Shown here one piece after another: positions 878 through 10,000 of a DNA stretch of 10,306 nucleotides. The notes beneath the pieces were generated by a model. The model did no database searches, was not told where the DNA came from, and saw only the letters and a list, made by a program, of their open reading frames with translations. The stretch is from Thermoplasmata archaeon. GTDB taxonomy: Archaea > Thermoplasmatota > Thermoplasmata > GCA-020350865. How positions within the stretch are numbered: position 1 is the stretch's first letter; the number at the start of each line of letters is the position of its first letter. The position numbers and the translations under genes are program-made. Location of the stretch: assembly GCA_020348445.1 (NCBI GenBank), contig CP070751.1, positions 1,360,112-1,370,417 on the forward strand. The letters run 5' to 3'.

Positions 878-943
878 GTGCGAGGGATGTGGATGTTTAA
901 GAATTAAGCTTGTCCCAACATAACATCCACTGACTCGCACTCC
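878..943. repeat. Hairpin element bounded by a copy of the tRNA-Leu acceptor end
   Basis: GTGCGAG (878-884) pairs with CTCGCAC (934-940), and GTGGATGTT (889-897) pairs with AACATCCAC (922-930). GTGCGAGGGA at 878-887 is repeated at 971-980. CTCGCACTCC (934-943) is also the exact reverse complement of GGAGTGCGAG (968-977). Confidence 0.8.
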
Positions 944-971: not shown

Positions 972-1092
972 TGCGAGGGACCGGATTCACCGAGCTATTT
1001 GTTTCTCTCACAGCTCTTGCTCGCAAATTTTTTAAATTTGCTCGTGAACCAAGGTTCAAATCCAGAATGTTATAAGATACTAGCAGTCCCTC
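972..1092. repeat. tRNA-Leu 3'-end cassette: direct copy with a hairpin insert plus an inverted copy
   Basis: 972-987 TGCGAGGGACCGGATT is identical to 1114-1129 and continues as TGAACC at 1045-1050 after a 57-nt insert. The inverted copy is GGTTCAAATCC (1053-1063) plus GTCCCTC (1086-1092). There is an internal perfect hairpin GCAAATTT-TTT-AAATTTGC at 1023-1041. Confidence 0.85.
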
Positions 1093-1113
1093 TTAAATGA
1101 GAAAATAATTAGA

Positions 1114-1221
1114 TGCGAGGGACCGGATTTGAACCGGCGAACCACTTCTGGAACAGATGTCCCATGCAACATGGTTTAGATCTTGAGTCTGTCGCCTTTG
1201 ACCATGCTTAGCTACCCTCGC
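1114..1221 (-). tRNA. trnL-CAA: tRNA-Leu (anticodon CAA), intron-containing, 85 nt mature, CCA not encoded
   Basis: Acceptor stem GCGAGGG/CCCTCGC with discriminator A. D arm GCTAAGCATGGTCAAAGGC. Anticodon stem ACAGA/TCTGT with loop CT-CAA-G|A (anticodon at 1185-1183). Long variable arm CCA-GAAG-TGG. T arm GCCGG-TTCAAAT-CCGGT. Confidence 0.97.
1159..1181 (-). other. 23-nt tRNA intron at the canonical position 37/38 with a bulge-helix-bulge-like motif
   Basis: Removing ATCTAAACCATGTTGCATGGGAC restores a 7-nt anticodon loop. Central helix CTCA/TGGG, with 3-nt bulges AG|A and AC|A. Confidence 0.9.
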
Positions 1222-1242
1222 ATTAAGGCGAATAACAGCTTA

Positions 1243-1417
1243 GAGGGTAGCTAAACTTGCTCCGAAGACAAACCGAAGGTTTGTTTAGGCAAGGGGTTGG
1301 GTACTCCAACCCTGGGCCCGTAGGAAACAGTTACATTTTAATCGAAGCATTGTTTCCGAGGGCGTAGAGGGAACCGAAGGTTGCCTCGATGTAGCTACCC
1401 TCGCATTAAAGCGAATA
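1243..1417. repeat. tRNA-Leu 5'-end cassette: inverted copy, four hairpins and a 26-bp direct copy
   Basis: 1392-1417 matches 1209-1234 at 25/26 (tRNA nt 1-13 plus 13 nt of leader). GAGGGTAGCTAA (1243-1254) is the reverse complement of 1208-1219. Hairpins at 1268-1284, 1294-1312, 1316-1363 and 1367-1387. Confidence 0.88.
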
Positions 1418-3140: not shown

Positions 3141-3319
3141 AATATCACTTTTTAGTAGTCCATGCTACGACATTCAATACAATCCAGTAATAAATAGTTT
3201 TGCCTTATTGATGGTTCAAGTATATGAGCAATAAAAGGACAATTTTTTTATCATCACAATCCTTTTACTGTTAGGATAAGGTATTTGTTCCTTAGGACTT
3301 GTGGATAGGAGACAGTTAA

Positions 3320-4513
3320 ATGAAGGATCTTAATGTAGATGTCGTGGTTGTAGGGGCAGGCCCTGCAGGGACCATCACAGCAAAATATGCTGCAAAATCA
3401 GGTGCGAGAGTATTGATTATCGAGAAAAGACAGGAGATTGGCTCTCCTGTTCGATGCGGGGAGGGAATAGCAGGGGGAAGATGGCTTGACGATGTGGGTA
3501 TAAGAGAAAGTGATAAATGGCTTACGCACAGGGTAAAAGGTGCCAAGATAGTCTCCCCAGACGGTTCAACATTGATAATAGACGAAAAGATCGCAGGAAA
3601 AGAGGTGGGAATGGTCATAGAGCGGGATATATTTGACAAGGAGCTTGCAAGGGATGCAATAATGGCCGGGGCCGATATCATGATAAAGACTTCGGCTATC
3701 GGGCTGTTGAATAAGGATAAAAGGATCATTGGAGTCAGGGCCAAACACATGGATTCTAAATTCAACATTTCAGCCAATATAGTTGTTGGAGCCGACGGAT
3801 TTGAATCCCAGGTGGGCAGATGGGCGCAAATAGACACAACTTTGGCGCCCAAGGACATCTCCACATGCTTCCAATATCGCATGATAGATATTGAACCTGA
3901 TCCAGATTACTGCGAGTTCATTATAGAGGATGTATTAAAGGGAGGATATATCTGGGTCTTTCCCAAAGGTAAAGATGAGGCCAACGTCGGTTGCGGTATG
4001 CAACTGAACAAGATCAAAGAAAAAGGAGCTGTGCGTGCATATTTGGACGATTTCATAAAAAGGCACCCACAGTATTCGAGTGGTAAAACAATTGAGATGG
4101 TTGCAGGAGCCGTTTCTGTTTCAGCACCCATCGAAAGAACTGTTGGAGAGGGTATATTGCTTGTCGGGGATGCCGCAAGACAGGTCAACCCAATGACAGG
4201 TGGGGGAATAGCAAATGGTTGCATTGCAGCCAAGATAGCTGGGGAAGTAATAGGTGAGGCAGTTGCAGTGGGTGATTTCAGTGCTGAGTTTCTTGCCAAA
4301 TATGAGAAGGGATGGCGAAAGAAACTGGAGGATTCATTGTATTTGAATTGGGCAGCAAGAGAGAAGTTGACCACATTGGGCAACGAGGCCATAAATAAGA
4401 TAATAAAAAGCCTTTCAGAGGTTAAAATCGACCAATTATCCACACTTAAGATAATTAAAGTGATAAGCGACAGACATCCAGAACTTTTAGAGGAATTAAG
4501 TGATCTTATATAG
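3320..4513 (+). CDS. ggr: Digeranylgeranylglycerophospholipid reductase (geranylgeranyl reductase family), 397 aa
   Basis: Rossmann GAGPAG, EKRQEIGSPVRCGEG, the GGR signature YIWVFPKG..ANVG, and GDAARQVNPMTGGGI. GGAG RBS upstream. Confidence 0.93.
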   Translation: MKDLNVDVVVVGAGPAGTITAKYAAKSGARVLIIEKRQEIGSPVRCGEGIAGGRWLDDVGIRESDKWLTHRVKGAKIVSPDGSTLIIDEKIAGKEVGMVIERDIFDKELARDAIMAGADIMIKTSAIGLLNKDKRIIGVRAKHMDSKFNISANIVVGADGFESQVGRWAQIDTTLAPKDISTCFQYRMIDIEPDPDYCEFIIEDVLKGGYIWVFPKGKDEANVGCGMQLNKIKEKGAVRAYLDDFIKRHPQYSSGKTIEMVAGAVSVSAPIERTVGEGILLVGDAARQVNPMTGGGIANGCIAAKIAGEVIGEAVAVGDFSAEFLAKYEKGWRKKLEDSLYLNWAAREKLTTLGNEAINKIIKSLSEVKIDQLSTLKIIKVISDRHPELLEELSDLI

Positions 4514-7021: not shown

Positions 7022-10000
7022 TTAAAGCCTGATATAGTCCTCACCTTTCTTGCCACCCTTTTTTCTGCGAACCAAGATGATTTCCTCATTGCACTTGGGG
7101 CATATCACCTCGTCACCTTCTGTGTCATAGAGCTTTGAGTACCTTTCATTGTATTCATTAATACAGTCCTTGCATAGCTTAGCTCCACAGTCATGCTCTA
7201 TCTTTACAGGATTATTCTCGCATATGAGGCATAGTTCTTCTTCCTCCTCAGCAGCAGGTTCATAATCCAAAGGCTCAGGTACAGGTTTCTCAAAAGGACC
7301 GGCCTCACCTTCAATAGGTTCTGTTAGTATGTGCCGCTCATCAAGGGATTTCACCCTAACCTCTGGTGTCACAACCTCCTGATCATGGAACTGCACAAGC
7401 AGGGCATGCACCCTTTTTGCTTCGAAGATTCCAAGGTTCAAATCCTGTATCAGGCCATTTACATTTCGTCTATGAGGTGGTAGTTCAAGTGCCCGATGAA
7501 GTATCTCCTCAAGTTCGGGATTGACTCTATCGACCTTCATTTCCATCTCATCTGCCTTGTTGATGTAGGCCAAAAGCCTTTTCGCCTTTATTATATCATA
7601 ATCAGAAAAACCCATTACCACATCTGCAAGTCTTAGACCGTTTTTCTCAAATGAAGCGGGATCGTCCCGTAATATACCCACAATGGCCCTGTTGGAATCC
7701 CCCTCGAACCTGTCTCTATCTTTTTGACTTAGGGCATTGATGTCCACATCCTCTTTCCGTGAGAGATATTGGATCACATCATCAAGATAACTGTATGGAA
7801 CATGACAAATTCTGAAGGCCTCCTCCTTGGTGGCAGGTCTTTTGTAATCTTTTTCGAATCTGAGTATGTCCCTTGCATACCGTTCTAGATTACCTTTCTT
7901 GATTTCCTTTTCAGCCAGTTCTTTACCCTCCACAGCAGGCATGTGTTTTGGATCCAGCTCAAGGGCATGATCAAAGCATCTTATGGCCTGTTCGTAGTTC
8001 TTGAGGTTATTCAAAGTCAGGCCTTTGCTGGTCCAGATTGCCTTGTTTTCTGGAGCAAGCCCCAGCCCTCTGTCAAAGCAGCCTATGGCAGCTTCAAGGT
8101 CACCTATTTTTGACAATGACATGCCCTTTCTGTGCCATAAATTAGGATCCTTGTCATCCAAGTTCAGGGCATTATCATAGCTTCTTATGGCTTCCTCGTA
8201 CTTCCCTGTCCTATCCAGCAACATGCCCTTGTTCAACCAATGCGATTTGTTGTTTTCGTCCAAATCGATGGCCCTGTCATAGCAGCCGATTGCAGCCTCG
8301 AACCTCCCAAGGCCCATATATGCCTCGGCCTTGCGAACCCATGACACGATATCATCAGAAATGGTCTCAAGAACTCTGTCAAAACTTCTTATTGCACTTT
8401 CAAATTCGTCCTTTGCCATGAGAGTGTGACCTTTGCCTTTATGGGCATGAATATTGTCCTTATCGATATCCAAAGCTCGATCAAATGCTTCCAGCGCCTC
8501 ATCGTGCTTGCCTGCCTCATAGAGAGCGTGCGCCCTATTCGTCCATATGCGGGCATCGTTGGGATCCAATTCCAGGGCCTTATCATAGCATATTATCGCT
8601 TCTTCATATTCTTCCATCTTCGAAAGCAGTTGGGCCTTATCGTTCCAAAGGAGCTTATCCTTTATCTGCAGTTTCAGTGCCTCATCATAGCTTTTCAGTG
8701 CCGCTTCGTACAGACCCTGCCTGCTTTCTGCCCTGCCCTTTTTCTGCAATGTCGCCACATCCTTTGGATTGAATTCCAAAATGCGGTTGTACAGGTCAAC
8801 AGCCTCCTCCAGTCTGTCCAGGTTTGCCAAAGCCACCCCCTTGTCCCTCAATGCTTCCATATTCCTGGGCTCCAAATCAAGAATTCTATCACAGGAAAAG
8901 ATGACATCCTCGTATCTTTTAAGGGATTTTAATGCCTCCTTCTTCTGGTTCCATATACCGATATTATCAGGCTCAATATTCAAGGCGCTCTCATATGCTG
9001 ATACAGCATCCTTATATTTTCCCAGCTTAGTCAAAGCGAAGGCCTTGTGCTCCAATGCCCTTGCGTTGTTAGGTGAATGTTCCAGGATCCTGTCGCAGGT
9101 TGTCTCGGCTTCCTCGTAATTTTCGAGTTTCATGAGCACATCCTTTTTGGTGATTAGTGCTTCCAGGTTGTCGGAATTGATATCAAGGACCTTGTTAAGA
9201 ATCCTTAAGGCATCGCTCTGCTTGTCCATTTTCACAAGCACCATACCTTTGGCTAATAGAGTACCTTCATCCTTTGGATTCAGATCCAAAGCCGAATCAA
9301 AGGAGACAAGTGACTCTTCGTATCGCCCTAACCAGTCCAAAGCCACACCTTTTAGATACAGATATCTTGAGTTCGTTGAATCTATTGAAAGTGCCTTCTC
9401 ATATGAGAGTAGAGCCTCCTCGTACCTCTCGGAATCTAGGAGTATTTTCCCTCTTTTATCCCACAAATTGGGATCCTGCTCATCCAGTGCAAGGGCCTTG
9501 TCATAACTTCTCACTGCCGCATCGAAATGCTCCAGAAATCTTAGAGCATCACCTTTATTCTCCAAAACATCCTTGTTATCTGGATTCAGTTTCAATGCAG
9601 AATCATAACTTTTTATAGCCTCTTCATAGGCCCCAATTCGGCTTAATGCAATACCTTTTTTCTGAATCGCATCCACGTTCTTGGAATCGAGCCTCAACAA
9701 CTCATCAAAGAGGTCAATTGCTTCATCGTTTCTTGCCAGATTTATGAGTGAAGCACCTTTATCCTCTAGAGCTTCGAGATTTTTTGGTTCTAGATTTAAA
9801 ATGCTTGTGCATGTTTCTATTATATCCTCATCCTTGCCCAATTGTTTTAAAGCATTCTTCTTTTTGAATAGAATGTCCATATCCTCGGGGCTGATTTGTA
9901 AGGCCTTATCATACGAAGAGACAGCCTTGTCCAACTGATTCAGATCCTCTAAAACCCAACCCCTATCTACCCAAGTCTCTAAATCCTTGGGATAGAACTT

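Follow-up and report, generated by a model that had tools for sequence, protein, structure and literature searches.

Hairpin Modules at Both Ends of a tRNA-Leu(CAA) Gene and at Other tRNA Genes in an Uncultured Thermoplasmata Archaeon

Arrangement of the tRNA-Leu(CAA) Locus

The DNA analyzed in this study comes from an uncultured Thermoplasmata lineage for which sediment metagenome-assembled genomes (MAGs) are the nearest public records. The source genome, designated G000, is a MAG of 5.16 Mb and 41.5% GC that comprises 354 contigs with 100-N linkers between them. The window, by which we mean the whole stretch that was analyzed, is one entire contig of this MAG and has a length of 10.3 kb. Four sister genomes of the same genus (G001, G002, G003, and G004) were used for comparison, making five in all. 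Around the features described below, the only RNA gene (Rfam, E ≤ 1) is a tRNA-Leu(CAA) gene on the minus strand (positions 1114–1221), which matches RF00005 over its full length with 42.6 bits and is called Leu(caa) by ARAGORN with the -i option. It has an intron of 23–25 nt in the anticodon loop, at about positions 1159–1181 (position 42 and 23 nt long according to ARAGORN -i), and because of this intron the gene is overlooked by ARAGORN in its default mode.

The features that flank the gene are also on the minus strand and are described here in the direction of the tRNA. A conserved box (cagcaattgacttaaaca..attatgg, 1440–1473), inferred to be a promoter region, lies upstream of a module (1243–1417) that is made up of a 5′ arm (U5), a body, and a 3′ arm (U3). 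The U5 arm (1392–1417) combines a direct copy of tRNA nucleotides 1–13 (1392–1404) with a copy of 12–13 nt of the leader (1405–1417) and is identical to 1209–1234 at 25 of 26 positions. The U3 arm (1243–1254), with the sequence GAGGGTAGCTAA, is an inverted copy that forms the exact complement of tRNA nucleotides 3–13; it lengthens to 20 nt with 85% complementarity when 1243–1262 is compared with 1200–1219. The body between the two arms (1255–1391) is of a family designated U-Leu and has nested hairpins, P2 with a TTCG loop and P3 (CCCTCGGAAAC..GTTTCCTACGGG), as well as two further hairpins that are common only to the GAG locus of G000. The predicted fold of the upstream module has an energy of −72.1 kcal/mol (z −5.9). 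Between U3 and the gene is a spacer of 21 nt (1222–1242), of which the 12 nt nearest the tRNA (..attcgccttaa) are the native leader, kept among the Leu paralogs. The motif ATTCGCYTTAAT is present ahead of most Leu tRNA genes in the genus, and a similar sequence is present ahead of GAG loci that are empty of modules.

On the downstream side, a second spacer of 21 nt (1093–1113), AT-rich and with a T4 run, leads to module D1 (966–1092), which is of a T-arm fold-back type. D1 consists of an inverted acceptor arm (GTCCCTC, 1086–1092), an inverted copy of the T-arm (1053–1063), an inner hairpin, and a direct copy (972–987) of the last 16 nt of the tRNA (1114–1129), with which it agrees at 16 of 16 positions. 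The spacer travels with modules of this type, and the sequence ctaattatttt..a(a)gaggga recurs ahead of D1-type units in G001, G003, and G004. D1 is separated from module D2 (866–946) by a spacer (947–965) that contains a T6 run and forms, together with the flanking arms, a further 10-bp hairpin. D2 is of a core-hairpin type and has an inverted arm at 934–940, a direct arm at 878–887, and a core stem (924–930 paired with 889–895) with the loop TTATG..TCTTAAA. A tail (820–865, ..aaattcgggaat..) that ends in a T7 run follows D2; it is common to the GAG and CAG loci only and is missing from an empty locus in G002 that is described below. The order in the tRNA direction is box, U5, body, U3, 21-nt spacer, tRNA, 21-nt spacer, D1, T6 spacer, D2, and T7 tail.

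The original prediction for this locus had described inverted and direct copies of the tRNA ends at 1086–1092, 1243–1254, 972–987, and 1392–1417 in a mirror-symmetric layout with two gaps of equal length, and every one of these elements is present at the coordinates given; D2 and the inverted T-arm copy come in addition to them. The mirror symmetry is an outcome of pairing, in that the edges of each module carry a copy and the exact complement of the adjoining tRNA terminus. [quoted passage not shown] All five occurrences of the acceptor 7-mer GCGAGGG/CCCTCGC in the window fall within 880–1404, and its density across the genome is 0.048 per kb; the end-copy layout at tRNA-Leu(CAA) is far beyond chance. 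A permuted tRNA on the opposite strand, with a 3′-like end at 1086–1093 and a 5′-like start at 1242, was also considered and was rejected for want of a tRNA match and of a plausible D or anticodon arm.

Modules at Other tRNA Genes

Mobile elements classically insert at tRNA genes, which in archaea also host introns and can be split or permuted. The 55 Rfam tRNA matches in G000 were the base of a census in which the 9-nt end of each gene was sought in the matching flank. A direct copy of the gene's own first 9 nt was found upstream of 18 of the 55 genes and a direct copy of its own last 9 nt downstream of 19, as compared with 3–4% in a control for which the ends were taken from unrelated tRNAs. 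Downstream of 13 of the 55 there is also an inverted 3′-end copy, mostly at 26–28 nt. The pattern is not unique to the CAA locus, since about 20 of the 55 tRNA genes in the MAG carry such modules; the 4.64-Mb cluster of about 24 tRNA genes has none. The other three Leu loci of G000 with archaeal-type genes have the same layout as the window, and their arms follow each tRNA (GCGGGGG in the case of the TAA gene). At a tRNA-Ala gene with a G3:U70 pair, the upstream arms are exactly complementary to the 5′ strand and the downstream arms to the 3′ strand, and the modules are therefore single-end palindromes and not decayed copies of a tRNA.

The outer stem of a module is formed by the first 11–26 nt of the tRNA when the module is upstream and by the last 7–16 nt when it is downstream. 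The inserts measure 60–190 nt, and an AT-rich spacer of about 21–28 nt lies between the module and the tRNA or the next module. The bodies belong to a few sequence families; upstream units have several unrelated bodies, and the same body adjoins tRNA genes with differing ends. The U-Leu type was aligned in 16 units from five genomes and five isoacceptors, and it has 13-nt arms, a covarying hairpin that is usually closed by TTCG, and a second conserved hairpin. Homologs of D1 follow tRNA-Tyr in G000 and Leu genes in G001, G003, and G004. Three tandem upstream units with a different body are present in G005, a genome from another genus of the same order.

The core of the D2 type has a variable 9-bp stem and a loop that starts with TTAT and ends with TCTTAAG, the loop ends GTTAT and CTTAA.C being invariant. 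An alignment of 21 downstream core units that include D2 of the window (alignment A1) has the consensus GTGTTCGAG..CTCGAACAC. A covariance model (R1), whose E-values are rough, was built on this core and detects 22–43 copies in each of the five genus genomes; among 115 other sampled Thermoplasmata there was no match in 114 and one marginal match. The copy that corresponds to D2 is at G000:1360994–1361046 (window 883–935). In G000, 36 of the 38 copies follow a tRNA gene at a distance of no more than 350 nt, and no copy precedes one. The orientation of these 36 is that of the tRNA in 32 and opposite in 4, and the first core unit begins 21–48 nt past the end of the gene, mostly at 32–38 nt. A subfamily of seven copies with the same core is located away from tRNA ends. 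In the few cases that were inspected, the core stem showed no correlation with the T-loop variant of the neighboring tRNA, and templating from that loop was rejected as its source. The tail motif TTCGGGAAT was also rejected as a general boundary signal; it occurs near tRNA genes at three places only, two of them downstream of Leu genes and the third upstream of an Ala gene.

These modules are best read as a lineage-specific family of non-coding fold-back DNA elements that accumulate at both ends of tRNA genes, of which the window holds one instance. The original prediction of a palindromic, non-autonomous family that targets tRNA genes is to this extent borne out by recurrence at many tRNA genes, by the small number of body families, and by presence and absence at exact tRNA boundaries. 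Its statement that the architecture is undescribed agrees with full-text literature searches, in which no published description of a tRNA-end hairpin family was found.

Gain and Loss among Sister Genomes and Transfer between Loci

The orthologous CAA locus in G002 is empty on both sides: the conserved box stands 15 nt ahead of the tRNA, and the next gene, which is syntenic, has its ATG 47 nt past the tRNA. In G004, the CAA locus contains a shorter upstream module that starts exactly where the tRNA starts in G002, so that a 13-nt direct repeat (tRNA nucleotides 1–13) stands on either side of the insert; the two downstream types are present there in reverse order. The direct repeat is also present in G003, where it is accompanied by an unrelated insert of 58 nt and lacks the inverted arm. 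G001 has D1 and D2 in common with the window at about 82% identity. An N-run, probably a contig join, begins inside the tRNA-Leu(CAA) gene of G001. At the GAG locus, the upstream module is present in G000 and G004 and missing in G001 and G002. The conserved box lies directly before the empty GAG gene of G001 and 16 nt before U5 in G004. Sister species have gained, lost, and rearranged modules, and these changes fall exactly at the boundaries of the tRNA.

The upstream module in the window is closest to that of the GAG locus in the same genome (68%), which has the same composite build. In G004, the upstream body at the GAG locus is 94% identical to that at the CAG locus, and nucleotides 12 and 17 of the GAG tRNA are of the CAG type. 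The sequences indicate a gene-conversion tract between these Leu loci that covers the module as well as nucleotides 1–17 of the tRNA. Within a single genome, modules can spread from one tRNA locus to a paralogous one and take the neighboring stretch of the tRNA with them.

The same comparison bears on whether the arrangement is an assembly artefact or a chance similarity in a metagenome contig. The window is a whole contig of a 354-contig MAG and palindromes are able to mislead assemblers, but independently assembled sister genomes carry the same modules at the orthologous locus with 82–88% identity, and the family-wide statistics oppose chance. We regard the probability of this explanation as negligible. 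The modules mimic tRNA ends and break assemblies.

Folding on the Two Strands and Possible Functions in RNA

The stems of the modules evolve through Watson-Crick double changes. In the 9-bp helix of alignment A1, 95.8% of the positions are paired, double changes are observed in eight of the nine pairs, and a one-sided G-U change is observed in none; the 189 stem cells contain no G-U intermediate. Mismatches in the core, as read on the sense strand, are A:C in nine cases versus G:T in two. Folding energies are alike on the two strands, and the antisense strand folds as well as the sense strand or better in 14 of 19 upstream flanks. The sense strand of the upstream flanks contains TTCG 44 times versus 18 for CGAA and CTTCGG seven times versus none for CCGAAG, whereas TTCG and CGAA are symmetric downstream. 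The upstream excess of TTCG would fit selection on a transcribed RNA or, alternatively, the formation of stable mini-hairpins, C(GAA)G, by the other strand of the DNA.

These observations cut both ways for a function at the level of RNA, in which the modules would be leader and trailer structures of the pre-tRNA that serve maturation, termination, insulation, or a folding switch, or would themselves be small hairpin RNAs. With the conserved box ahead of it and the tRNA behind it, the upstream module is probably transcribed, and its TTCG excess is on the sense strand. The hairpins covary, and the U-Leu architecture is kept. Downstream, the core is at a fixed distance with an orientation bias of 32:4, and a T-run follows each direct arm and is lacking at the empty G002 site. 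[quoted passage not shown] Against this, the modules are dispensable, the orthologous loci of sister genomes being empty on one or both sides, and four cores are inverted relative to the tRNA. The T-runs ahead of the downstream modules imply that most transcripts should stop before them. The absence of G-U intermediates, the preponderance of A:C over G:T mismatches, and the equal or better antisense folds also weigh against a function in RNA. Sense-specific RNA folding was rejected, since neither the energies nor the G-U counts give the sense strand an advantage. An RNA-level function is on balance unlikely.

The original prediction had offered as one alternative an RNA switch in the leader and trailer that competes with folding of the acceptor stem and gates tRNA maturation. 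This fares poorly, because the locus is empty yet working in a sister species, stem changes pass through no G-U intermediates, and both strands fold equally. Moreover, each inverted arm is transcribed beside its own partner and so does not compete with the tRNA. On inspection, no K-turn, C/D, or H/ACA motif was seen in the core.

Relation to Mobile Elements and Other Known Repeats

The direct repeats of the tRNA end that bound every module here are of the kind left by integration into the 5′ or 3′ ends of archaeal tRNA genes (PMC3293823; PMC9897764). The modules could on this account be att-site duplicates left by integrative plasmids or viruses with a tyrosine recombinase, or by casposon-like elements, with interiors that were later deleted. 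However, the inserts are just 60–190 nt long and have no gene remnants, both ends of one tRNA are affected, and the inverted copies and conserved hairpin cores are left unexplained. A fixed attP cannot serve tRNA genes whose ends differ, yet one and the same body stands beside such genes. No full tyrosine recombinase was found in G000, where PF00589 is represented by two short fragments, both at other loci, and neither Cas1 nor a casposase was found there. Scars of this type are very unlikely to be the source of the modules. The repeats of SSV/pNOB8-type elements are the closest in form, in that duplicated tRNA terminal segments bound an insert and leave the functional gene intact (PMC3293823; PMC9897764), but they are about 40–60 bp long, belong to kilobase elements with an integrase, and occur at one end only, whereas the modules have copies of 7–26 nt, an inverted copy, 60–190-nt inserts at both ends of the gene, and no integrase. 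Archaeal integrative elements are the subject of a review (PMC8371274).

Mobilization in trans has also been considered, with the modules as REP/MITE-like non-autonomous transposons whose hairpin is recognized by an HUH (Y1) or other transposase. Y1_Tnp genes are present in all five genus genomes (5–17 matches each), the loop ends of the core hairpin are invariant, and the seven-copy subfamily carries the same core away from tRNA ends. On the other hand, of 26 relatives that lack the core, 8 also possess Y1_Tnp. In G000, the end hairpins of the IS200-type copies are unrelated and the core does not adjoin these copies, and no reverse transcriptase (RVT_1) was found in G000, G001, or G002. The outer arms are locus-specific, unlike the terminal repeats of transposons. 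Co-occurring HUH nucleases or integrases had been named in the original prediction as partners to look for, and the search yielded no linked integrase and no specific HUH transposase; such transposition appears improbable.

REP, BIME, and REPIN sequences are short, non-coding, imperfect extragenic palindromes that are mobilized by RAYT (Y1 HUH) transposases. The modules are similar to them in that each genome has copies by the tens, many of them arranged in tandem, with covarying stems and a narrow lineage distribution. REP sequences have one fixed consensus and lie between any genes, whereas the outer arms here are copied from the adjoining tRNA end and the modules keep to tRNA termini. The search for a specific RAYT-like partner was negative, the flanks of the Y1 genes in G000 being without the core. 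Integron attC sites are imperfect palindromes with conserved ends and a variable center and are thought to act as folded single strands. The modules have a similar division into conserved ends and variable center, but A1 lacks the RYYYAAC/GTTRRRY core sites, and there are no cassettes and no IntI-type recombinase. Tandem inversion duplications, as well as quasi-palindrome correction, arise by template switching during replication. They have in common with the modules the direct-inverted-direct order of one segment and exact Watson-Crick arms (also at G:U positions), but they are sporadic and at arbitrary sites, whereas the modules recur at many tRNA gene ends with conserved body families. The module bodies are old and are shared between loci.

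[quoted passage not shown] Like the downstream core, it is a hairpin that is confined to one lineage and keeps a set distance from the 3′ ends of many archaeal tRNA genes. It differs in being one short and invariable motif that neither copies the tRNA end nor forms arrays and that has nothing equivalent upstream, and its sequence is unrelated to the A1 consensus. The family fails one defining feature of each of REP/BIME, att scars, attC, and the Methanopyrus palindrome. Mobile bulge-helix-bulge introns and the leaders of split and permuted tRNAs (PMC4090602; PMC3978253) resemble the modules in that a stretch of the insert complements the adjoining exon and the same family occurs in different tRNAs of an intron-rich lineage. 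The modules differ from these introns in lying outside the mature tRNA and in sharing no sequence with ARAGORN-called introns. The latter comparison covered 24 such introns of at least 15 nt, a 25th of 8 nt and the T-loop introns of two tRNA genes missed by the tools being left out; blastn against 94 flanks gave trivial self-overlaps only, and tRNA introns were rejected as the source of the module bodies. On inspection, as well as in the minimum-free-energy folds, the arms appear as continuous helices in which no 3-nt bulges spaced by 4 bp were seen at the junctions.

Origin and Maintenance of the Modules

The preferred reading, to which we assign about an even chance, is that the modules are DNA-level fold-back repeats that are templated on the ends of tRNA genes and spread by gene conversion. 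It is consistent with the strictly Watson-Crick covariation, the excess of A:C over G:T mismatches in the core, the similar folding of the two strands, the four inverted cores, and the dispensability of the modules in sister species. A construction by fold-back or template switching, as suggested in the original prediction, would account for the direct-inverted-direct order and for arms that pair strictly by Watson-Crick rules; what the sequences demonstrate is the spread between paralogous tRNA loci by gene conversion.

Several features sit less well with a DNA-level origin. The core is strongly polar (32 versus 4) and at a fixed distance from the tRNA end, mostly 32–38 nt, which hints at a function or at directed insertion rather than at passive palindromes. 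This polarity and the TTCG bias are left unexplained by the DNA-level reading. The U-Leu bodies are kept over five isoacceptors and five species, and hairpin loops of 21–29 nt are poor formers of cruciforms. Neither an enzyme nor a direct trace of a template-switch event has been identified.

A different reading, possible but on balance doubtful, is that an undescribed process dedicated to the ends of tRNA genes exists and that the modules are either its product or its functional components. In one version, a pathway driven by a nuclease or recombinase, or by replication restart, may copy the gene end into a fold-back cassette whose distance and orientation are both fixed. In the other, the modules may constitute a functional boundary system of tRNA loci, for example as terminators, as insulators, or as attachment sites that act as decoys for elements integrating into tRNA genes. 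If either version were true, the modules would represent a new class of genome element with repeat arms templated by the target, and if the downstream core were a signal for processing, termination, or protection against integration, it would be a new component of archaeal tRNA biology. The arms of this family are remade to agree with the adjoining tRNA end, whichever that is, and this holds on both sides of the gene. The empty sites in sister genomes and the transfer between loci make it a tractable system for studying how short palindromes form, stay perfect, and spread without an obvious transposase.

Under the preferred reading of templated fold-back repeats, the resident tRNA end would serve as the template for fold-back copying or template switching, by which the palindromes arise and stay perfect. 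New tRNA genes would be reached by ectopic gene conversion anchored in conserved tRNA sequence, and arrays would grow and shrink through unequal recombination between direct repeats. The modules may be tolerated because the inverted arm pairs with its own partner and leaves the folding of the tRNA alone. The downstream modules would be located behind T-runs. The upstream modules would be transcribed within the leader and cut off by RNase P. The RNase P RNA was found in the genome with 184.8 bits, so that removal of the leader in this way is feasible.

Core Loop Away from tRNA Ends and the Y1_Tnp Gene Pair

The core loop of the tRNA-end modules also occurs in an intergenic element of ~110 nt, of which G000, the genome holding the window, has seven copies (contig C1, positions 70974, 395435, 2621050, 3219250, 3473535, 3486804, and 4029795). 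The loop is identical to that of the module core, its stem is GCCCTTAGG/CCTAAGGGC, and the flanks of the element, which are C-rich, do not correspond to tRNA ends. At the GAG locus, another tRNA-Leu locus, one copy is found directly upstream of the box, the putative promoter region. Two adjacent Y1_Tnp genes (C1:4214534–4215446) have orthologs in the sister-species genomes G001, G002, and G003, a pairing that recurs in the genus. The flanks of the pair showed no module core.

Strand Asymmetries and Exon Copies within tRNA Genes

Across the tRNA flanks of G000, core-stem mismatches read on the sense strand comprise nine A:C versus two G:T, and the upstream flanks fold better on the antisense strand at 14 of 19 loci. 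Contrary to this antisense advantage, TTCG loops are enriched upstream on the sense strand.

Two G000 tRNA genes, at about C1:668255–668405 (−) and C1:2879725–2879868 (+), were detected by neither ARAGORN -i nor Rfam and carry homologous T-loop introns of ~50 nt. Both introns have a degenerate T-loop copy at their end, so that the exon-copy theme is present within genes too.

tRNA Genes without Modules and a Bacterial-Looking tRNA-Leu

At C1:4640570–4643566, approximately 24 tRNA genes, among them several whose introns are odd, are tightly clustered; end-copy modules were found at none of them, and the cluster may derive from a virus or from another organism in the bin. Modules are likewise absent at a second tRNA-Leu(CAA), which is intron-less and unlike the focal gene in sequence (C1:1350514–1350599). 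A bacterial-looking tRNA-Leu(TAA) (C1:1864505–1864591) adjoins a tyrosine-recombinase fragment (1864225–1864380). Either of these tRNA-Leu genes could be contamination or part of a mobile element.

Assembly and Gene Content of the Window

The "single contig" of G000 consists of 354 contigs arranged by size with 100-N linkers between them, and the window is one complete contig, at C1:1360112–1370417. In G001, a run of N begins inside the orthologous tRNA-Leu gene and probably likewise marks a junction between contigs; if so, the assembly was broken at the module.

The focal tRNA-Leu(CAA) is flanked by a nucleotidyltransferase-like ORF (222–695, −; weak NTP_transf_5 match) and a second ORF (1550–2152, −), for which the C-terminal SoFic-like match is weak. 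Synteny of the downstream ORF is kept in G002 and G001; in G002 only 47 nt separate the tRNA from its ATG, and the intervening T-run is absent. A tRNA-Ile with a 90-nt intron, called by ARAGORN -i at 3286–3471, overlaps the start of a geranylgeranyl-reductase ORF; the call lacks support from Rfam and is likely to be a false positive. A sub-threshold match to C/D-box sR17 (19.8 bits; 9478–9526) lies within a 1087-residue TPR ORF.
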